A DNA stretch of 64,000 nucleotides, from positions 15,112-79,111 of the forward strand of contig JACRGD010000007.1 in NCBI GenBank assembly GCA_016212525.1. Reading direction: 5' to 3'. Shown here piece after piece: positions 34,084 through 43,989 of the stretch; position 1 is the stretch's first letter; each line of letters begins with the position of its first letter. Position numbers and translations under genes: made by a program. The stretch is from Candidatus Micrarchaeota archaeon. GTDB taxonomy: Archaea; Micrarchaeota; Micrarchaeia; Anstonellales; Bilamarchaeaceae. Below the pieces are notes generated by a model. The model was given only the letters and a program-made list of their open reading frames with translations. It was not told the origin of the DNA and ran no database searches.

Positions 34084-35082
34084 TCATAAATCCGATTTTT
34101 GATCAAAAAGAAGTTCCGCAACGACCGCCCTGTGATCTGAAGTAGGAGTCGGATCAACTTCATATCTTGCAAATTGAACCCCTGGACCTGCAAGGAATAT
34201 GTAATCTAAAGTTCGATTTGGTGCTACTGCCGGATAGGTATGAAATCCATCAAGAAGATCAGGGTTTGCATTGGCAGTTAGGTCAAATGGTGGAATAAAT
34301 AGTTTTTGTTCGATGATGTGCTGCATTGCAGGATCATGAGTATAGTCATCAGGATCGCCAGATAAATGACTGGGAAATGCCATTAGTCTTGAGGAGCGGG
34401 GTATCGCATTAAAGTCGCCGGCAATAACCATTGGCATATCAAAGCGTCTTAAAGCGCTTCGCACCTTTGTATGTAGTTTTTGTATCTGCCAGCCCCTGCC
34501 AAACGTATTTCCCCGAAGTTCAGGACCAAGATAGCGGATGATTTGATAAAATATGTCACTTAGGAGATGGGTACTATATACCCCAAAATCAGGACCGTCA
34601 GGAGGAGAGACCATTACAAAGGTAAAACCTTTGCATTCATTGAGCAATTTGACAAGATAATTCACCGGGAGATGAGGAGAAAAGGATTGACCAAAATCAT
34701 AACTGGTGTGTTCAGAAAGCGGATATTTAGAGATTACAACAGTACCAAGATCTCGCCCAAGCACAGTGTTTGAAACAAACGATTTCAACACACCTGGAAG
34801 CGGACTTCTTAGATGCGAAGACCCATGATAAAAACTAAAACCCAGACGATGAACAAGATATTCAAGTTGATTTATTCCTGCAGTCCTAAGAGAGAAAAAA
34901 TCAACCTCCTGCAGACACACAACCACTGCGCCCGAGGCAATAATTCTCTCGGCAATAACATCCAGATTTCGAAAAACTTGTTTTTTTGTTATCGGTTGAC
35001 GCAATTCTCCAAAAGGCCCATGAGCAGTATTGATGTTTTGAGAATATAGAATCACTCTGCAGGGCTCTTTGGCAAGTGCCAT
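34084..35082 (-). CDS. endonuclease/exonuclease/phosphatase (EEP) family protein
   Basis: NI, CLQEVD, GDFN, TYP, LDYIF, SDH. Confidence 0.9.
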   Translation of the reverse strand: MALAKEPCRVILYSQNINTAHGPFGELRQPITKKQVFRNLDVIAERIIASGAVVVCLQEVDFFSLRTAGINQLEYLVHRLGFSFYHGSSHLRSPLPGVLKSFVSNTVLGRDLGTVVISKYPLSEHTSYDFGQSFSPHLPVNYLVKLLNECKGFTFVMVSPPDGPDFGVYSTHLLSDIFYQIIRYLGPELRGNTFGRGWQIQKLHTKVRSALRRFDMPMVIAGDFNAIPRSSRLMAFPSHLSGDPDDYTHDPAMQHIIEQKLFIPPFDLTANANPDLLDGFHTYPAVAPNRTLDYIFLAGPGVQFARYEVDPTPTSDHRAVVAELLFDQKSDL

Positions 35083-35120
35083 AATAGATAAGTACAAAGA
35101 AGCTATAAAAGAAACGCAAA

Positions 35121-35148
35121 GTTACAAAGATATTTATAGTGGGAAAGA
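35121..35148 (+). promoter_or_regulatory. his cluster promoter 1 (BRE/TATA-like; 18-bp block shared with the hisF promoter)
   Basis: TATTTATAGTGGGAAAGA at 35131-35148, identical to 42510-42527. Confidence 0.75.
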
Positions 35149-35185
35149 CACAGACATTGTGTTAGTTAATGATTAGGTGAAAATA

Positions 35186-35484
35186 ATGGTGAACAAAAGA
35201 GGTATGGAAAGGGGTTTACTTCACCCCGATAAAGGAAAAGGATTTACTTCATCCGTCTGGATGCCAAAGCAAGACTAGTTTTACCGCTGTCAGTGCGGGA
35301 TCGATTAAACATCAAACCCAAAGACCAAATTTTACTTAGCGTTAGCAGTTTTTCGGATTCGGGGGATAAACAAACAATTACTTTAGTATTAGCGAAAGCC
35401 CCGGAAGATTTCCAGACTGAATCATATTCGTATTCGCGCAACGGGCGAGTTGTAGGAAAAAAATTTCGAGGTGGATTTGAATGA
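35186..35484 (+). CDS. AbrB/SpoVT-like DNA-binding protein, predicted to need two +1 frameshifts at CTT-CAY
   Basis: IRLDAKARLVLPLSVRDRLNIKPKDQI AbrB signature starts at 35251 in a frame closed upstream by TAA 35230; RBS AGGTGA + ATG 35186 is in another frame; stop overlaps the hisD ATG. Confidence 0.7.
35204..35252 (+). promoter_or_regulatory. two tandem putative +1 frameshift cassettes (SD-like, N3, CTT-CAY)
   Basis: ATG GAA AGG GGT TTA CTT CAC (35204-35224) and, in the +1 frame, AAG GAA AAG GAT TTA CTT CAT (35232-35252). Confidence 0.7.
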
Positions 35485-36839
35485 CTATTTTGAAAGTTCA
35501 GAGGTTAATTGATGCTGATTTATCTAAATTATTGGATCGCGGGACAACTAAGACAAATGTTATGCAGACAGTTCAATCGGTTTTTGAAGCGATTAAACTA
35601 CGTGGATTAACTGCAGCATTAGAATTTACAAAGCAGTTTGATGGAGTTACATTTAAATTTGCAAGTGAACTTTGCGTTTCAGATGCTTCGATAAAAGAGG
35701 CATATTCAAAATTGTCTAAAGAGCAAATAAGTGCAATTAAAGATTCGATAACCCGGGTTCGGGCATTTTGCATTGCTCAACTTCAAAATGTTCAAAACAC
35801 AAAACTCAAAACTGCAGAAGGTATCACTGAGCTTCGATGGCTTCCAATAGAGAGAGTCGGAATATATGCGCCAGCTGGCCGAGCTCCGCTTCCATCTTCA
35901 GTAATAATGGGTGCAATTACAGCTAAAGTTGCCGGAGTACGAAAACTGATCTTATGCGCTCCACCTCAAAAAGATGGGACTATAAATCCTGCAATTCTTG
36001 TTGCAGCTAATGAATGTGGAATAACTGAAATTTATAAAATTGGAGGAGCTCAAGCGATAGCTGCGATGACTTATGGATTATCAGCATCGAACATCGAGTT
36101 TCCGGCAGTGGATATGATTTGCGGGCCGGGAAACGCTTATGTTGCATACGCAAAGCAATACGCCGCATCTGAGGGGAGAGTAAAAATTGATACTATTGCA
36201 GGTCCGTCTGAAGTCTTAATTTTAGCAGATAAAACTGCAAACCCAAAACTCGTTGCAGCCGACATGCTTGCTCAAGCAGAGCACGGACCAACTTCGGCTG
36301 CAATATGCGTTTCGTGTTCAGAGAGTTTTTCCCAAAGTTTGGCAATCGAATTAGATCGCCAGCTTAACGCTTTTGGAGAAGGAGAAAAACAGGAACCCAT
36401 GCGAACTTCACTTAGAAATTGGGGTGCAATTTTGGTTGCTGAATCATTAGATCAGGCAATCGATTTTGTGAATGATTTTGCATCCGAGCACGTCGAACTT
36501 TATCTTGAAAATGCTGATAAAGTAGCCAATCGAATTACCTTTGCCGGAGCAATCTTTATAGGAACTGGAGAAGTCTTTGGCGATTATGGTATGGCTGGAG
36601 GAAATCACATTCTTCCAACTGGCAGATCTGCAAGATTTGCCTCTCCAGTTAGCGTGTATTCATTCCTGCGACAGCAACAAATCGAAAAGATGAATACCGA
36701 TGCACAAGCGCAACTTGCAGAAGCAACTGCTGATTTTGCCAGGGTTGAAACACTTGAAGCACATGCGCGCTCGGCTGAGGTTAGGGCTAGTGAATCTAAC
36801 ATTGCAAAAAATAATAATAATACAAAAGAGGAGGAGTAA
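35481..36839 (+). CDS. hisD: histidinol dehydrogenase
   Basis: GPGNAYV, AGPSE, QAEHG, SEH, GDY..G.NHILPT. Confidence 0.95.
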   Translation: MTILKVQRLIDADLSKLLDRGTTKTNVMQTVQSVFEAIKLRGLTAALEFTKQFDGVTFKFASELCVSDASIKEAYSKLSKEQISAIKDSITRVRAFCIAQLQNVQNTKLKTAEGITELRWLPIERVGIYAPAGRAPLPSSVIMGAITAKVAGVRKLILCAPPQKDGTINPAILVAANECGITEIYKIGGAQAIAAMTYGLSASNIEFPAVDMICGPGNAYVAYAKQYAASEGRVKIDTIAGPSEVLILADKTANPKLVAADMLAQAEHGPTSAAICVSCSESFSQSLAIELDRQLNAFGEGEKQEPMRTSLRNWGAILVAESLDQAIDFVNDFASEHVELYLENADKVANRITFAGAIFIGTGEVFGDYGMAGGNHILPTGRSARFASPVSVYSFLRQQQIEKMNTDAQAQLAEATADFARVETLEAHARSAEVRASESNIAKNNNNTKEEE

Positions 36840-36840
36840 A

Positions 36841-37893
36841 ATGACTGAAATTGATGTTTTAGTTCGAGATAGTATTAAACAAATAAAGGAATATTCAAGG
36901 CCGCCAATACTAGATACCGGAATAAAACTGAATCAAAATGAATCGCCTTATGGCTTACCTTTAGAAGTAGTTAGGGAATTTGAGAAAAGACTTGCAAAAC
37001 TTGCCTTCAATAGATATCCTGAAGGTTCATCTGAAAAACTACGAATTAAAATCGCAAGAAAATTCAAAACAAATCCAGATCAAATAGTAGTAGGTTGTGG
37101 AATCGATGAGATTCTTTATTATCTTTTGATGGCCTTTGTTGAAAAGGGAGACAAACTAGTAAGGCCGGTTCCAAGTTTTGGGATGTATCCAATTTGCGCT
37201 CAGGTTAGTGCTGCAAAAGATGTTCCAGTTCAACTTAGTGATAAATTTGATTTGACTGAAGAATTTGTAACCCAGAGCAAAGATGCCAAAATGACAATTA
37301 TTTGCAGTCCAAACAATCCAACCGGAAATTGTATGAATAAGAAACTAATTGAACGAATAATTCAGGGGACTTTGGGTTTAGTTGTAATAGATGAAGCATA
37401 TGCAGATTTTGCAGAATCAGATTGCATGGATTTTCTTAAATACGACAATGTGATTTTACTAAGGACTTTTTCTAAAGCAGGTTCATTTGCTTCCGGAAGA
37501 CTAGGATTTTCTGTTTCCAGTAAGAAAATTGCCGATTATATTAACCGAGTCAGACTTCCCTGGAACGTTAGTGCCATGGTTCAGGAACTAGGTGAATTGA
37601 TTTTGGATTATGAACCTCTTTTCCTTGAAAAAATTGAACAAATTAAAAAAGACCGGAATGTTTTGCTTTCAGAATTGAAAAAGATCGTAAAGACATATCC
37701 AACTGATTGTAATTTCTTTCTTTTTGAAGTGAAAGACCCTAAAAAAGTTTTTGAAAAACTGATTTCAGAAGGAGTTCTTACCCGAAATATAAGTGGAAAT
37801 TCTCCAAGACTAAAAAACTGCCTTAGAGTCTGTGTTGGAACCAGAGAAGAAAACGAAAAATTCCTTCGCGCACTTAAGAGGTGTTTGGAATGA
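36841..37893 (+). CDS. hisC: histidinol-phosphate aminotransferase
   Basis: NESPY, NRYP, SPNNPTG, DEAY, RTFSK. Confidence 0.95.
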   Translation: MTEIDVLVRDSIKQIKEYSRPPILDTGIKLNQNESPYGLPLEVVREFEKRLAKLAFNRYPEGSSEKLRIKIARKFKTNPDQIVVGCGIDEILYYLLMAFVEKGDKLVRPVPSFGMYPICAQVSAAKDVPVQLSDKFDLTEEFVTQSKDAKMTIICSPNNPTGNCMNKKLIERIIQGTLGLVVIDEAYADFAESDCMDFLKYDNVILLRTFSKAGSFASGRLGFSVSSKKIADYINRVRLPWNVSAMVQELGELILDYEPLFLEKIEQIKKDRNVLLSELKKIVKTYPTDCNFFLFEVKDPKKVFEKLISEGVLTRNISGNSPRLKNCLRVCVGTREENEKFLRALKRCLE

Positions 37894-38543
37894 AATTTGA
37901 TGCAATAATTTTTGATGTGGATGGAGTTTTAATTGATGTAAGTCAGTCGTACCGGATTGCAATAATCAGAACGGTCAAACAATTTAGTGGCAAGCAAATC
38001 AGCAATGCTGATATTGATTTGCTTAAGCAAACCCCTGGTTTCAATAATGACTGGGATGCGTCATTTGCACTAAACAAAGAAATAACTGACCCAAAACAGG
38101 TTGACCGTACTTCTGATGAATACAAAAAAATGAAGGACTATTTTCAAAGTCAATATTTAGGCGAACTTATCTTTAAAGAAAAATCCCTAATTGATTTAAA
38201 AACTCTTGAACTTCTTAGTTCAAAAGGTCTGAAAATGGGGGTTGCAACCAGCAGGCCAAGAGAGGAAGCTTTCATTGCGTTAAGAACTGCCGGAATCAGT
38301 CCAAAATACATCTTAGAAAGAAATGTTGTTGCACAGGAAGATGCGCCAGAAAAACCTTCTCCAGAACCACTTCTTTTAGCAAAGAAAAAAATCAATGCAA
38401 CAAATCCTGTTTATGTTGGGGATACTTCCAGTGACAAACTGGCAGCAGAGCGGGCAAAAATGCCCTTTATTTATTGTAAGAAAAATCCCCAGATTGAGCT
38501 GATGGAAATTGAGAATGTGAATCAATTAATTGATGTGATTTAA
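37890..38543 (+). CDS. HAD-superfamily phosphatase, probable histidinol-phosphate phosphatase
   Basis: FDVDGVL, KPSP, YVGD; ATGA-coupled to hisC and directly followed by hisB. Confidence 0.8.
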   Translation: MKFDAIIFDVDGVLIDVSQSYRIAIIRTVKQFSGKQISNADIDLLKQTPGFNNDWDASFALNKEITDPKQVDRTSDEYKKMKDYFQSQYLGELIFKEKSLIDLKTLELLSSKGLKMGVATSRPREEAFIALRTAGISPKYILERNVVAQEDAPEKPSPEPLLLAKKKINATNPVYVGDTSSDKLAAERAKMPFIYCKKNPQIELMEIENVNQLIDVI

Positions 38544-39203
38544 ATGGTAAATCGAACTGCAAAAATAACCCGGAAAACAAAGGAAACAGAAATAGAAGTC
38601 GAACTTAATTTAGATGGAAGCGGGAAAAGCGACATTAAAATCGGAGTTGGTTTTCTTGAGCACATGCTAACCTTATTTGCCGCACGAGGGATGTTTGACC
38701 TAAAAGTTTTCGCAAATGGCGATTTAGATGTCGATGATCACCACACAATCGAGGACATAGGAATCTGTATCGGTCAGGCATTTTCAGAGGCAATAGGAGA
38801 CAAGCGAGGCATACGCAGGTACGGGTTTTGGATTCTTCCGATGGACGAAACGCTTGCAACTATTGCACTTGATCTTAGCGGACGCAGTGCTTTGGTTTGG
38901 AACGTCCAGTTCGAACGCGAGAAAATTGGCGATATGAGTACAGAAATGCTCTATGACTTTTTCGACGCATTTTCACGTAATGCCCAGGTAAATTTACACA
39001 TGAAAATCGAGTATGGAAGAAACGAGCACCACAGAGCCGAAGCCCTCTTTAAGGGGTGGGGAATGGCAATGCGCATGGCTTGCGAGATTGATCCACGACA
39101 GATTGGAATTCCAAGCACAAAGGGAATTCTTAGCGAAAGTACCGACACAGCTAAGTCGAAAGTAGAGGTGAAAAACTATGATACGTTTAGCAATTCCAAA
39201 TAA
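38544..39203 (+). CDS. hisB: imidazoleglycerol-phosphate dehydratase (monofunctional)
   Basis: DDHHTIED, PMDE, NEHHRAEALFK, PSTKG. Confidence 0.96.
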   Translation: MVNRTAKITRKTKETEIEVELNLDGSGKSDIKIGVGFLEHMLTLFAARGMFDLKVFANGDLDVDDHHTIEDIGICIGQAFSEAIGDKRGIRRYGFWILPMDETLATIALDLSGRSALVWNVQFEREKIGDMSTEMLYDFFDAFSRNAQVNLHMKIEYGRNEHHRAEALFKGWGMAMRMACEIDPRQIGIPSTKGILSESTDTAKSKVEVKNYDTFSNSK

Positions 39204-40062
39204 AGGCCGCATTTCAACTGAAGTTTTGCGGCTTCTATCAAAAATCGGGCTTGAAGTCCCGGAAAACGGAAGAAAGCTTTATGCAAATACAAACAATCCT
39301 AACATTCAGATTGTTTATGCGCGTGCAGCAGATATTCCGTTTTTTGTCTCTGCAGGAGTAGCGGATGCCGGGATTACTGGAGAAGATATGATTTTGGAAA
39401 GCTCGGAGGAAGTAAGTGAAGAAAATGCAAAAAAATCGATAACGAAGTTACTACGATTGAATTTTGGAAAATGCAAAATCGTTGTCGCAGCGCCAAATAA
39501 TTCGAAGATAAATTCAACACAAGATTATCCAGCTAAAGTTCGGGTTGCAACCAAACTTACAAACATAACTTCGAGGTATTTTAGATCAAAGAAAATCAAT
39601 GCAAAAATCATCAGACTCTCAGGTGCAACTGAACTAGCCCCAGCACTTGGTATTGCTGATTTAATTGTAGATCAGGTTAGTACGGGAACAACTTTGGCAG
39701 CAAATAATCTAAAAATTGTCGATGAAATTTTCGAATCTGAGATCTATCTGTTTGCAAATAGCCGGTCTTTGAAAGAAAAAACCGAAGATCTGGATTCACT
39801 GAAGACCTCATTTGAAAGTGTAATTACTGCCGAATCCAAACGATATATCATGGTGAATGCTGATGGCGAAGATACTTTAGCACGAGTTACTGCCGTGATG
39901 CCTGCATTAGACAGTCCAACCATTCTTAAACTTGCAAAAGTCGGGTCTTATGCAGTTCACAGCGTCGTCGATGCCAATGAACTAATCGGCACCATTTGCA
40001 AGATAAAAAAGGCAGGCGGAACTGGAATTTTGGTCATGAACGCATCGCGCGTAGTCGAATGA
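39178..40062 (+). CDS. hisG: ATP phosphoribosyltransferase (long form)
   Basis: AIPNKGR, DAGITGED, GATELAP, DQVSTGTTL, C-terminal regulatory domain. Confidence 0.95.
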   Translation: MIRLAIPNKGRISTEVLRLLSKIGLEVPENGRKLYANTNNPNIQIVYARAADIPFFVSAGVADAGITGEDMILESSEEVSEENAKKSITKLLRLNFGKCKIVVAAPNNSKINSTQDYPAKVRVATKLTNITSRYFRSKKINAKIIRLSGATELAPALGIADLIVDQVSTGTTLAANNLKIVDEIFESEIYLFANSRSLKEKTEDLDSLKTSFESVITAESKRYIMVNADGEDTLARVTAVMPALDSPTILKLAKVGSYAVHSVVDANELIGTICKIKKAGGTGILVMNASRVVE

Positions 40063-40075
40063 TGAGGCTAAACCT

Positions 40076-40723
40076 ATGACTCAGATTACCATCATTGATT
40101 ATGGCGCAGGAAATGCAGTAAATGTGCAAAATGCCCTGCAAAAACTGGGTGCCAATTGCAAGATTAGCGCAAGCGAAACTGACTGGTTAAATGCAGATGG
40201 CATTATTTTTCCAGGAGTCGGTGCCTTTGGCCCGGCCATGCAAAATTTAGGGAAGCGTAGCCAAATTCTCAGAAGAATCATTAACGAATCTGATCGCCCG
40301 TTTCTTGGCATATGCCTTGGAATGCAACTTCTCCTTGAAAAAAGTGAGGAAAGCCCAAGTACAGAAGGCCTGGGGGTTTTGGAAGGGTCGGTTTTGCGTT
40401 TTGAATCCAATGCTTTGGGTTCTGAAACTAAATCTCTTCCAGTTCCACAAATTGCATGGAATGAGGTTAATGTAGTTAGTAACTCGGGTAAATGTTCTCC
40501 GCTTTTTGATGGTCTTGCAGATAGATTCTACGCGTATTTTGTTCACTCATATTACTGCAAAGTTAGTGATCGTTCATTAGTTGCTGCTACGGCTAAATAT
40601 GGAATTGAATTCGATTCTTCAATCTGGAAAAAGAATCTTTTTGCAACTCAGTTTCACCCTGAAAAAAGCGGAAACGATGGGTTAACGATATTGCAAAATT
40701 TCCTAGATGAGGTGAAATGCTAA
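40076..40723 (+). CDS. hisH: imidazole glycerol phosphate synthase glutaminase subunit
   Basis: DYGAGN, PGVG, GICLGMQ, FVHSY, QFHPEKS. Confidence 0.96.
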   Translation: MTQITIIDYGAGNAVNVQNALQKLGANCKISASETDWLNADGIIFPGVGAFGPAMQNLGKRSQILRRIINESDRPFLGICLGMQLLLEKSEESPSTEGLGVLEGSVLRFESNALGSETKSLPVPQIAWNEVNVVSNSGKCSPLFDGLADRFYAYFVHSYYCKVSDRSLVAATAKYGIEFDSSIWKKNLFATQFHPEKSGNDGLTILQNFLDEVKC

Positions 40724-41434
40724 ATGGTTATTGATAAATTTCAGGTTATTCCGGCAATCGACTTGATGGGTGGTCAATGCGTTCGATTGGTCAAGGGTGA
40801 AAAACAGAATAAAATCGAGTATGCGATTTCACCGTATGAAATGGCTAAGAGCTATCTTGAATATGGTGCAAAACTCATCCACATAGTTGATTTAGATGGC
40901 GCATTTACTGGTCAGATGACCAACCTTCCAATTATTTCAAAACTCGCAAGCGAATATCCAATCCAGGTCGGAGGTGGAATACGCAATGAAGAGCGAATTA
41001 GAGAATTGCTTTTGCTTGGAGTGAAAAGAGTAGTTGTGAGTTCGCTTCTACTAAAAAATCAGGAATTGGCAACTGAACTAAAAACCAAATACAAAGGAAA
41101 GCTCGTTGGCTCATTTGATTTTAAAAATGGCAGATTAGCTTATGCAGGTTGGACAAAAGAAAGTGAACTCAAATTTAACGAGGTCGTTGCAGGTTTAGAT
41201 GAAATTGTTGTGACTGACACCAATAAAGATGGAACGTTTGAAGGACCCAATCTCGAATTGCTTTCATCGCTTCGGGCGAGCTACCCGAACATCAAAATCA
41301 TCTCAGCTGGAGGAGTCAAAGATGAATCTGATCTTGCTGCCTTAGAAGGAATCGGAATTGATGGGGTTATCATAGGCAGAGGATTTTTCGAGAAGATGAT
41401 AAAACTGTCTGTTCTTGGAGGGTGTAAAAGATGA
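40724..41434 (+). CDS. hisA: ProFAR isomerase
   Basis: PAIDL..GQCVRL, HIVDLDGA, QVGGGIR. Confidence 0.94.
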   Translation: MVIDKFQVIPAIDLMGGQCVRLVKGEKQNKIEYAISPYEMAKSYLEYGAKLIHIVDLDGAFTGQMTNLPIISKLASEYPIQVGGGIRNEERIRELLLLGVKRVVVSSLLLKNQELATELKTKYKGKLVGSFDFKNGRLAYAGWTKESELKFNEVVAGLDEIVVTDTNKDGTFEGPNLELLSSLRASYPNIKIISAGGVKDESDLAALEGIGIDGVIIGRGFFEKMIKLSVLGGCKR

Positions 41435-41649
41435 CATGTTTGAATCGGATATCGATTCAAGAAAAGAGAGGGTAGAAGTTTAGTATCGAATACGGCAGCC
41501 AAAAATAGCAACGAAAACTGGTTAAATATCTGATTGAATTGGAATTAATTTTGACGCAAGGCCGTAAGTTGCACGAAGTATTTAAGCATCTGACACCAAC
41601 TGAACAAGCTATGCTTGAATTTCAAGCCAGGAATATTCTTTTATCTTGA
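41431..41649 (+). pseudogene. possible decayed gene coupled to hisA (two in-frame TAG)
   Basis: ATGA overlap with the hisA stop and GGAGGGTG RBS; TAG at 41473 and 41506, then open to TGA 41647. Confidence 0.3.
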
Positions 41650-42306
41650 AAATGGACTAATCGCATTCAATTGCCTTACAGCCAGCTCAAGATTGCCCGC
41701 TCCAAGTGCTGCTTGCGCGTTTGCAAAATGAGGTGAGCTTGCTATTGCAGATGCGGATACGTGATGGGTCCTAACTAAAAACGACTCACATAATTCACGT
41801 CGGTATTCTTCAGTATACCGCTCAGGATGTGCTAAAACACGTCTAGCTTCTGCATAAGCCATTTGGAAATAGAATCCATCAGCACCAGTTTCTCGTATGG
41901 GTTGAGGTATAGCTTGCTCAGGACTCGTGCTAAATGGTTGCTCCCTAAGGCGCGGTAATGCCGCATCTAGCCTAGATAAAATTGTCGTAAGCATTCGCCA
42001 AGCAGTTTGAACAGAACAATTCTCTGGTGGGGTTGGAGGCAGTCGCAATTGGGAGAGAGCAGTTAATTCTGCTGGACTCATTTGATCTCTATGATTATAC
42101 AAAATATCTCCAACCCTTCCCCTGGCTTCATTTATTGCATTTAATAAATCGTCTCGGACGTGAGGTGTGTTTGGTAGATTATATTTATATCGTTCGTATA
42201 TTTGTCTGGCAAAATTATACTTAACCATGACCTCTGCAGGCAAAAGCATTCGTTCCGAAGGCTGAAGCCTTGTGCTGTGCTCCTGAATTATTTGGAATAG
42301 AAACAT
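41641..42306 (-). CDS. hypothetical protein splitting the his cluster
   Basis: 221-aa ORF with GGTGA RBS on the opposite strand; no recognisable motif. Confidence 0.65.
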   Translation of the reverse strand: MFLFQIIQEHSTRLQPSERMLLPAEVMVKYNFARQIYERYKYNLPNTPHVRDDLLNAINEARGRVGDILYNHRDQMSPAELTALSQLRLPPTPPENCSVQTAWRMLTTILSRLDAALPRLREQPFSTSPEQAIPQPIRETGADGFYFQMAYAEARRVLAHPERYTEEYRRELCESFLVRTHHVSASAIASSPHFANAQAALGAGNLELAVRQLNAISPFSR

Positions 42307-42499
42307 GTCACCATTTATCGGTCATAGTTTAAATCATTTTGGCTCAAAAAAATAAATGACTTTTAACTACTGCATAAGTGCGTATCGCTTTGAGTAGGAA
42401 AGTTTCGCGTAGTTCCTAATATCAAGGAAGATCAAAAATGTATCGAGTGCTTAAAGTTGGAAATCGTGAAACCCGACACTCAGCTTAAGTTCTCTTCCG

Positions 42500-42527
42500 G
42501 TCACAAATTTATTTATAGTGGGAAAGA
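42500..42527 (+). promoter_or_regulatory. his cluster promoter 2 (copy of promoter 1)
   Basis: GTCACAAA-TT-TATTTATAGTGGGAAAGA vs GTTACAAA-GA-TATTTATAGTGGGAAAGA at 35121. Confidence 0.75.
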
Positions 42528-42553
42528 TAACTAATTATGTTAAGGTTGTAAAA

Positions 42554-43358
42554 ATGGAAAAGGATATACTTCACAAAAATTAGGACTTCTAAATCGCCAC
42601 TTTGTAAACGGATTATTCCCTGTCTTGATGTCAAAAACGGTCGGGTAGTTAAAGGCACTAATTTTGTTGGTCTTAAAGATGCCGGAGATCCGATCGAACT
42701 TGCAAGGAAATATTACGAAGACGGGGCAGACGAGCTGGTTTTTCTTGATATTACTGCTAGTAGTGAAGGTCGAAACACGGTAGTTGAACTAGCTAAAGCA
42801 GTTGCGCAGGAAGTCTTCATTCCGTTTACTATCGGTGGGGGCATTCGAACTATCAAAGATATTGAAGCGCTACTTAAGGCAGGAGCAGATAAAGTTTCCA
42901 TCAATACGGCCGCAATAGTTAATCCCAAACTGCTAACAGATGCGGCTTGTGAATTCGGAAATCAGGCCATCGTCATTGCAATCGATGCCAAACAAAACGA
43001 ATCAGGGAGTTGGAATGTTTACAAAATGGGCGGGTGCATTGACACTAACTTTAATGCCATGGAATGGGCAAAAAAGGCAGTTTCTCTAGGAGCCGGAGAA
43101 GTTCTTCTAACAAGCATGGATAGAGATGGAACTCAAAGTGGATTCGACATCGAGCTAACTCGTGCGATTGTTAAGGCTGTGAACGTTCCAGTTATTGCGT
43201 CAGGCGGTGGCGGAAAAGTCGATGACTTCATTAATGTTTTTCAAAAAACAAACGTTTCGGCAGCACTTGCAGCCGGAATTTTCCACTATGGAAAAATAAC
43301 AATTGGTGGCCTAAAAAAAGAATTAAAATTAGCGGGAGTTGATATTCGTGAAATCTGA
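42554..43358 (+). CDS. hisF: imidazole glycerol phosphate synthase cyclase subunit, predicted to need one +1 frameshift at CTT-CAC (42569-42574)
   Basis: Intact [19 protein letters not shown]...[10 protein letters not shown]...GGGIR frame from 42600 has no ATG/GTG/TTG between TAA 42549 and ATG 43026; ATG 42554 opens MEKDILHKN* in the adjacent frame. Confidence 0.9.
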
Positions 43359-43989
43359 AAACAATAATTTTGACAAAGACATTCAAAAGGATAAAAGTAG
43401 GGTCGATCAAATCAAGTTCGATAACGATGGATTAGTTCCAATTATAGTTCAGGATGCAAATACAGGAGTAGTGCTCTCACTCGTCTATGCCAATTCGGAT
43501 GCAGTCTGCCGGATGCAGGAAACTGGTTTTGTCTGGCGCTATAGTCGCTCGAAGAAAAAAATAATGCAAAAAGGAGAAGAAAGCGGGAACGTTCAGAGGA
43601 TCGTTTCAATCGATTTAGACTGTGACAAAGATGCTCTGCTAGTTCGAGTATTACCTGAAGGACCTGCATGCCACCTGAGTACGGTTTCATGTTTTGGATC
43701 TGAAGAGGTAGCAGATATGCTTTCTGAACTTGCACTCATAATAAAAGACCGAAGACAAAATCAAGACTCAAATCAAAATTCATACACCGCAAAGGTAGTT
43801 TCAAATCGGGAGCTCGCAATCGAAAAGCTACGTGAAGAATGCGAGGAATTGATCGAAGCTAAAGAAAAGAAGGATCTGATCTGGGAGGCGGCTGATCTTC
43901 TCTACTTTACGCTAGTTTATTTTGAGAATCGCGAGGTTGAATTTGGGGATGTCTTGAAGGAACTAAGACGAAGACGTCTAAGTCACTAA
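43348..43989 (+). CDS. hisIE: bifunctional PR-AMP cyclohydrolase / PR-ATP pyrophosphatase
   Basis: GLVP.IVQD, SRS, KGEESGN, DCDKD, PACH...SCF; SYT, K..EE, EAADLLY. Confidence 0.94.

Follow-up and report, generated by a model that had tools for sequence, protein, structure and literature searches.

How are proteins made from histidine biosynthesis (his) genes that have no start codon? The question is raised by a 64,000-nucleotide stretch of contig JACRGD010000007.1 (positions 15,112 to 79,111) of a Candidatus Micrarchaeota archaeon, referred to here as the window, in which his genes occur as two units. In each unit a start-less open reading frame (ORF) lies behind a short leader that carries one or two copies of a 21-nt cassette ending in a leucine codon, CTT, and a histidine codon, CAC or CAT. 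Judging from comparative sequence analysis, the cassette is very probably a genuine and selected programmed +1 frameshift site, similar to that of bacterial prfB and responsive to amino-acid starvation. The elements concerned are:

35186 to 35278, plus strand: leader ORF in frame 0, with ATG, a Shine-Dalgarno (SD) sequence at about 35175-35180 and stop TAG at 35276
35204 to 35224, plus strand: cassette 1, an SD-like run followed by CTT at 35219-21 (P site) and CAC at 35222-24 (putative His sensor codon)
35232 to 35252, plus strand: cassette 2, with CTT at 35247-49 and CAT at 35250-52
35248 to 35484, plus strand: start-less ORF for an AbrB/SpoVT-like small protein (putatively DNA-binding; similarity matches all weak but consistent), entered after two +1 shifts
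35481 to 41434, plus strand: hisD, hisC, HAD phosphatase gene, hisB, hisG, hisH and hisA, each with its own start
42554 to 42583, plus strand: nine-codon leader with cassette 3, with CTT at 42569-71, CAC at 42572-74 and stop TAG at 42581
42570 to 43358, plus strand: start-less hisF, lying +1 relative to the nine-codon leader

The three motifs, their frames and the stops TAG 35276, 35337 and 42581 all lie where an earlier note, made from the sequence alone, had placed them. Cassette 2 begins 28 nt past cassette 1 and is in frame only once the first shift has occurred; the frame leading through it, if unshifted, ends at TAG 35337. From the upstream stop to the homologous N-terminus, neither the AbrB-like ORF nor hisF contains ATG, GTG or TTG. 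HisF has proline (CCA) where relatives have methionine ahead of the conserved KRIIPCLD motif, and 19 of the 22 distinct homologues found of the AbrB-like ORF lack a methionine upstream of its conserved motif. The earlier claim that the cassettes lead to start-less genes is upheld for the AbrB-like ORF (two shifts) and for hisF, but not for hisD to hisA; hisD has its own ATG at 35481 behind a strong SD (-10.9 kcal/mol), and hisC to hisA likewise have starts. The pattern A[AG]GG[AG]T[AT]TACTTCAY, a motif defined after the fact, has three matches in the 1.47 Mb genome, all in the window, with 0.04 expected from 4-mer statistics. The genome encodes both tRNA-Leu(GAG) and tRNA-His(GUG). Positions 34900-43000 are matched without a difference or gap by a 30 kb public contig (46.6x), possibly the source of the DNA analysed, and a second sample from the same groundwater study agrees exactly over 35003-35658 (sites 1 and 2); no listed piece from that sample spans site 3.

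In the mechanism that we propose, a ribosome would start on the short leader and reach CUU with the His codon next. With ample His-tRNA, it would stay in the leader's frame and terminate after a few more codons. With scarce His-tRNA, it would pause; tRNA-Leu(GAG) could then let go of CUU and pair with UUC, moving translation into the +1 frame, a slip that pairing of the mRNA just upstream with the 16S tail may assist. In the hisF unit a single shift would yield HisF; in the first unit two serial shifts would yield the AbrB-like protein and bring the ribosome to the start of hisD. Three outputs are envisaged: direct fusion to an enzyme (hisF here; hisD, hisG, proC and trpE elsewhere), a linker or small regulatory ORF whose end meets the start of the following gene (hisD here), and polarity. 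We infer the shift, its starvation dependence, the role of the SD-like run, and control of hisD to hisA by coupling or FttA-type polarity.

The earlier note had proposed a search of relatives, and this favored its reading: the cassette is kept in frame with a leader start, ahead of start-less his genes. HisD matches were obtained in 45 of the 176 genomes of the order, of which 44 could be oriented (G095, with no alignment to the HisD query, was dropped). Once six CTTCAY sites lacking GG upstream had been set aside, 47 CTTCAY sites with GG upstream were counted within 480 nt upstream of hisD, in 33 of the 44 genomes. Each of the 47 shares its frame with a leader start or follows in frame from an earlier shift (46 by script, one GTG start by eye), and the same layout is found at 77 of 851 CTTCAY across 43 surrounding loci, true sites included. 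The unshifted frame at the relatives' sites meets a stop after a median of 11 and a maximum of 38 codons. For hisD-proximal cassettes the HisD frame is the +1 frame in 22/22 cases; that frame lacks an ATG in 11 of these and an SD-led start in 19. The spacing of tandem sites is 3n+1 in 10/10 pairs (19, 25 or 28 nt). Four further genomes carry the cassette at a hisG-first head, for a total of 37/44; placement follows the operon head, be it hisD, hisG, the AbrB-like ORF or hisF. Among 22 his loci of other orders the cassette is clear in six (two with GTT) and doubtful in one, and public records labelled Candidatus Micrarchaeota show the same cassette with his genes. Since related genomes share descent, these counts are not independent trials and no p-value is claimed.

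The phases bear on the best-surviving alternative, in which stalling at the sensor codon would act by attenuation or reinitiation with no frame change, the start-less genes beginning at a non-AUG codon by way of the internal SD-like run. The initiation SD of this genome puts TGAT 7-8 nt before the start, near the place where the G-R-T-Y of the cassette would pair; ATT or ATA codons occur in the +1 frame near each window site; and in 17 linker-type cassettes the frame-0 stop is followed by a pyrimidine-rich tract that is attenuator-like. This alternative leaves unexplained the 22/22 +1 phases, the 10/10 spacings of 3n+1, and a P-site codon able to re-pair on UUC or UUU. Approximately half of the sites have G at -5, so that no ATT is available there. 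Classical attenuators contain runs of cognate codons, unlike the single sensor codons seen here. We consider stalling without a frame change unlikely. Transcriptional slippage was dropped, as the site has no homopolymer.

If the cassette senses an aminoacyl-tRNA, its last codon should follow the pathway behind it. Two patterns with an open sensor codon were run over 401 genomes of the phylum, each with a reversed control. The first gave 30 matches against 4 in the control, and the 23 that passed the leader filter comprised seven His, eight Cys, four Pro, one Phe and three judged to be chance. The second gave 51 rows (50 places) against 1; nine of the 50 places were dropped as out of frame or inside ORFs, and the 41 with an in-frame leader (by reading) were His 25, Pro 6, Cys 4, Trp 3, Phe 2 and one double site, Tyr then Leu. 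Five lax-filter matches (GCG, CAG, TAT, CAA, TCC) were judged chance and dropped. With both patterns pooled, the Pro codon stands ahead of proC, proB or an ornithine cyclodeaminase gene in six of seven cases, the seventh being a 34-residue piece at the end of a contig, without a family match. A Cys codon precedes cysK, cysE or a CBS-like gene in 8/10, directly or via a short linker or small ORF, and all three Trp sites lead into trp genes, straight into trpE in two and into a TrpB-like fragment (below cut-off) in one. The single Tyr site leads into aspartate kinase (lysC), asd and ADH synthase genes, a set that we take to be the archaeal aromatic route. Among the 25 His places of the second pattern, 19 are at his or hisS operon heads, two are at the head of this kind of operon with no hisS in the sequence displayed, and four are at the heads of radical SAM genes. 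No clean cross-match, such as a Cys codon ahead of his genes, was seen in these scans. The earlier description of the cassette as a histidine sensor therefore needs widening: the His codon fits the his heads, but the cassette is not confined to His, and its codon changes with the pathway (Pro, Cys, Trp).

The distribution extends to a second phylum, that of an Iainarchaeum record, where 14 of 201 genomes match against 5 in the control. At nine loci there a His cassette is followed by tRNA-His and hisS (family-confirmed hisS in two; seven of the nine already in the His-specific scan), and the +1 frame extends to the hisS start in five and stops just before or within the first tRNA bases in four. 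At L315:209-427, L316, L323, L324 and L325 the +1 frame stays open across the tRNA-His gene as far as the hisS start codon. At L314:307-1503 (minus strand) a 399-codon ORF, LAGLIDADG-like by eye, occupies the +1 frame between cassette and tRNA-His. In the Woesearchaeota phylum (131 genomes, a looser pattern with about 44 control matches) six of 30 listed loci passed a lax filter; these six have neither a His codon nor a long +1 ORF. In bacteria, one narrow pattern run over 45 of 64 parts of the genome collection gave 99 loci; the 10 of these that passed the lax leader filter have no his gene next to them.

A shift at a constant ratio, blind to amino-acid supply and serving only to lower expression, would have a precedent in Ty1, where CUU_AGG_C alone shifts at about 40% according to the accessible part of a review (PMC5009743), and some cassettes do precede genes without a known codon link. 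It gives no reason for His, Pro, Cys or Trp codons to be matched to the downstream pathway, synthetase or tRNA, and we regard it as quite improbable. It is likely that one portable cassette provides general amino-acid sensing in Micrarchaeota and Iainarchaeum-type archaea. The codon would name the amino acid (His, Pro, Cys, Trp, Tyr, perhaps Phe) and predict the downstream function, and serial sites would sharpen the response. The shifted ribosome would make the enzyme, or cover a pyrimidine-rich terminator and pass control to the gene that follows; it would even cross a tRNA-His gene and so switch on tRNA-His and hisS.

What is conserved upstream of the sensor codon points to RNA. The sensor codon itself varies among relatives (CAC 26, CAT 21) and the leader peptide sequence is variable, but upstream silent positions are fixed: Arg codons end in G in 33/33 (22% in this genome) and Gly or Asp codons end in T in 38/39. 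For this reason the signal would be in the RNA, not the peptide, and the fixed run agrees with pairing to the 16S tail of this genome, GAUCACCUCC. The predicted internal SD-like duplexes with this tail are -6.1, -4.8 and -3.1 kcal/mol at sites 1-3. The SD duplex of the first leader ORF (35186) is -8.3 kcal/mol, and cassette 3 is the weakest of the three, its leader SD being -3.8 kcal/mol. The P-site CTT is followed by C at 3/3 window sites and at 47 sites of relatives, which were selected by pattern; CTT-T occurs in the Cys and Trp forms. The spacing had earlier been called identical to that of prfB. The purine run does lie in the same place (-9 to -5), but pairing is best in another register or with a bulge; because this puts the helix differently, identity of the spacing is not established. 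Three near-identical copies at transcript heads, with GTGGG repeats upstream in 18/33 genomes, might look like operators, yet the view of the cassettes as protein-binding sites in DNA or RNA, or as assembly errors with coincidental frames, is already largely refuted and hardly credible, given contigs without an indel, an architecture that recurs in dozens of genomes, and variation that is synonymous in the sensor codon and preserves frame.

Whether both his units are gated, as first proposed, has a different answer for each. HisF is start-less behind its cassette; the enzymes of the first unit are not start-less, and we infer their gating from coupling or polarity. The TGA of the AbrB-like ORF overlaps the hisD ATG (ATGA), and, in the accessible part of one study, NTGA is the commonest coupled spacing and coupling is shown in an archaeon (PMC12548453). 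Polarity could act through transcription. The 20 bases past the frame-0 stop are 65-85% pyrimidine in 17 hand-picked linker-type cassettes and 15-55% in 10 protein-fusion cassettes, and the window genome has an aCPSF1/FttA homologue; archaeal termination is described, in the text available of another paper, as preferring U-rich RNA together with FttA (PMC13681488).

Several observations weigh against starvation-responsive frameshifting as the general explanation. Tight gating of hisD to hisA is its weakest step, and we put it only somewhat above an even chance, because the hisD SD is strong and no significant hairpin masks it. A candidate hairpin masking the hisD SD in the window was rejected as no better than shuffles (z -0.56) and not conserved, and SD accessibility varies among relatives; coupling is therefore without structural backing. 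The pairing of site 3 with the 16S tail is weak. An SD-type cassette was not found in seven of the 44 hisD genomes (G067, where the head is off the contig, G039, G046, G069, G070, G078 and G079), two of which have CTT CAT without the purine run, nor in 15 of the 22 his loci of other orders under the filter applied. Some sites (G025, G123, G122, G413, G272) have GTT in place of CTT, with poorer re-pairing. There is no known codon link for the His cassettes ahead of radical SAM genes (G100, G122, G143, G151), the Phe cassettes ahead of small HTH ORFs (G013, G129), or the Cys cassettes ahead of HTH and uncharacterised genes (G148, G157), and a Leu codon stands at the second site ahead of lysC in G123:C100. 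The four radical SAM genomes have no HisD match, and a histidine-related function of these genes is possible. A caution comes from E. coli pheL, where, in the part of the report at hand, a conserved leader frameshift proved incidental, with no effect on pheA (PMC3082878).

The second unit appears to have a history of its own. The remaining features of this region are:

35132 to 35148, plus strand: promoter-like 17-mer (TATA-like element plus GTGGG), a putative promoter, of which an identical copy precedes the hisF leader
41435 to 42510, no strand: insert parting hisA from hisF, with a minus-strand orphan ORF of 226 codons (41641-42321)
42511 to 42527, plus strand: second copy of the promoter-like 17-mer
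43333 to 43989, plus strand: hisIE (stop-to-stop frame), overlapping the end of hisF

The 17-mer has only these two copies genome-wide (35132, 42511), and the orphan ORF has no Pfam or NCBIfam match. Relatives' hisF has an ordinary ATG in 11/11 displayed and lies close behind hisA in 10; hisF cassettes were absent from relatives, with one doubtful case (G075, with ATG directly after). Because a second 17-mer and a separate cassette lie behind the insert, and the ancestral Met position is now Pro, the operon head was presumably duplicated in front of hisF, which afterwards lost its ATG. The product of 35248-35484 appears, on weak but consistent evidence, to be a conserved small protein of AbrB/SpoVT type: a profile of 20 homologues matches AbrB structures weakly (E 7e-4 to 2e-3), the window protein matches Pfam MazE below cut-off while 13/20 family members match at E<0.05, and a monomer model (pLDDT 73) has AbrB-family top rows in Foldseek (E 0.03-0.7). 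Three genome-wide scans found no cassette at other operons of the window genome, the region upstream of hisS being covered by those scans only; its trp and aro operon heads have ordinary starts. Upstream of the aro operon (G000 C8:186680-186795, outside the window) is a 38-codon Phe-rich ORF with Tyr and Trp near its end, which resembles a classical leader peptide.

Further loci are recorded for their architecture. GTGGG direct repeats occur near the promoter upstream of his heads in 18/33 genomes (a single copy in 30), at 35139 and 42518 in the window and, for example, at L051, L052, L068 and L074. An AbrB-plus-ACT-like gene lies just upstream at several his loci and was not found in G000 with that query. 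At L310:2-1502 (minus strand) the cassette opens a HisG-HisD fusion directly, downstream of a tRNA-His gene. Where GTT is the P-site codon (L048, L070, L347, L267, L279), the +1 frame still gives UUC. A His cassette heads an operon of a 355-residue protein, an Asp/Glu racemase and hisS at L374:683-2442, L375 and L342; at L347, L354, L356, L377 and L260 His cassettes, often with an AbrB-like ORF, head radical SAM genes (MSMEG_0568-like or SPASM). Cys or Phe cassettes open small start-less HTH proteins at L359, L369, L370, L373, L301 and L311. At L358:470-520 Tyr and Leu cassettes share a frame and either would open aspartate kinase, a parallel arrangement unlike the serial his heads. Probable HisRS N-termini (by eye) at L384 and L385 contain RDFL encoded by cassette-core bases, which may be chance or a hint of origin.

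If the proposal is correct, it adds a class of amino-acid sensor to attenuators, T-boxes and upstream ORFs, and the codon becomes a clue to the function of downstream genes, for example the radical SAM family linked to His. It would also provide a natural, selected use of hungry-codon frameshifting; the portion of a 2016 review available to us states that no examples were known of hungry-codon trans-frame proteins with a starvation-specific function (PMC5009743). A large archaeal +1 recoding family would stand against one -1 case, fucA1, the only reported archaeal case according to the accessible text of a 2021 review (PMC8211752). Gene callers would mis-start many DPANN biosynthetic genes, and an element so short and portable could be tested directly in model archaea or bacteria.

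The literature searched in full text, from which most subscription papers and supplements fall outside coverage, held no description of the cassette, and in the window Rfam at gathering score matched only tRNAs, with no leader or T-box family; the folds considered for the window leaders are minimum-free-energy folds only. The mechanics seem to be borrowed from prfB, and we could not place the codon-swappable use as a metabolic sensor in any known class found. As in prfB, insofar as the review text at hand describes it (PMC5009743), there is a short frame-0 leader, and CUU is followed by a pyrimidine that allows re-pairing; the slow A site, the feedback by which the product relieves the pause, and the SD-like run about 3 nt 5' of CUU would be shared if the cassette works as proposed. 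Because its A site is a sense codon (CAY, not UGA) and the genes behind it are the AbrB-like ORF and hisF, not RF2, the cassette would work like prfB without being a member. It further differs in its proposed ligand, aminoacyl-tRNA, in being archaeal and modular across amino acids, and in occurring in up to four copies per locus, some serial, at the heads of whole operons, a synthetase gene and a tRNA gene. Hungry-codon shifts and the CUU_AGG_C of Ty1, ABP140 and EST3 resemble the proposed mechanism in that a slow A-site sense codon drives tRNA-Leu to slip +1 from CUU; in the same portion of that review, the former are known from starvation experiments and Ty1 relies on a rare tRNA with no SD (PMC5009743). 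The fucA1 site shows programmed frameshifting on archaeal ribosomes, although it is a -1 shift in a single gene in the text available (PMC8211752), and the upstream GTGGG repeats resemble the MraZ site (AAAGTGKN3)3 as given in the accessible part of its description (PMC5282649), a lead only to a putative operator. Ornithine decarboxylase antizyme and the ermC leader also use a frameshift as both sensor and effector of a small-molecule signal, but they sense polyamines and antibiotics, where the cassette would sense aminoacyl-tRNA supply. The hisL, trpL and pheL attenuators and the T-boxes sense uncharged tRNA, reuse one design with an amino-acid-specific codon, and control biosynthesis and synthetase genes. 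Unlike hisL-type attenuators, each cassette has a single His codon and its output would be a change of reading frame; with attenuators and T-boxes it would share the sensing of uncharged tRNA, codon-specific reuse, and biosynthesis and synthetase genes as its targets.

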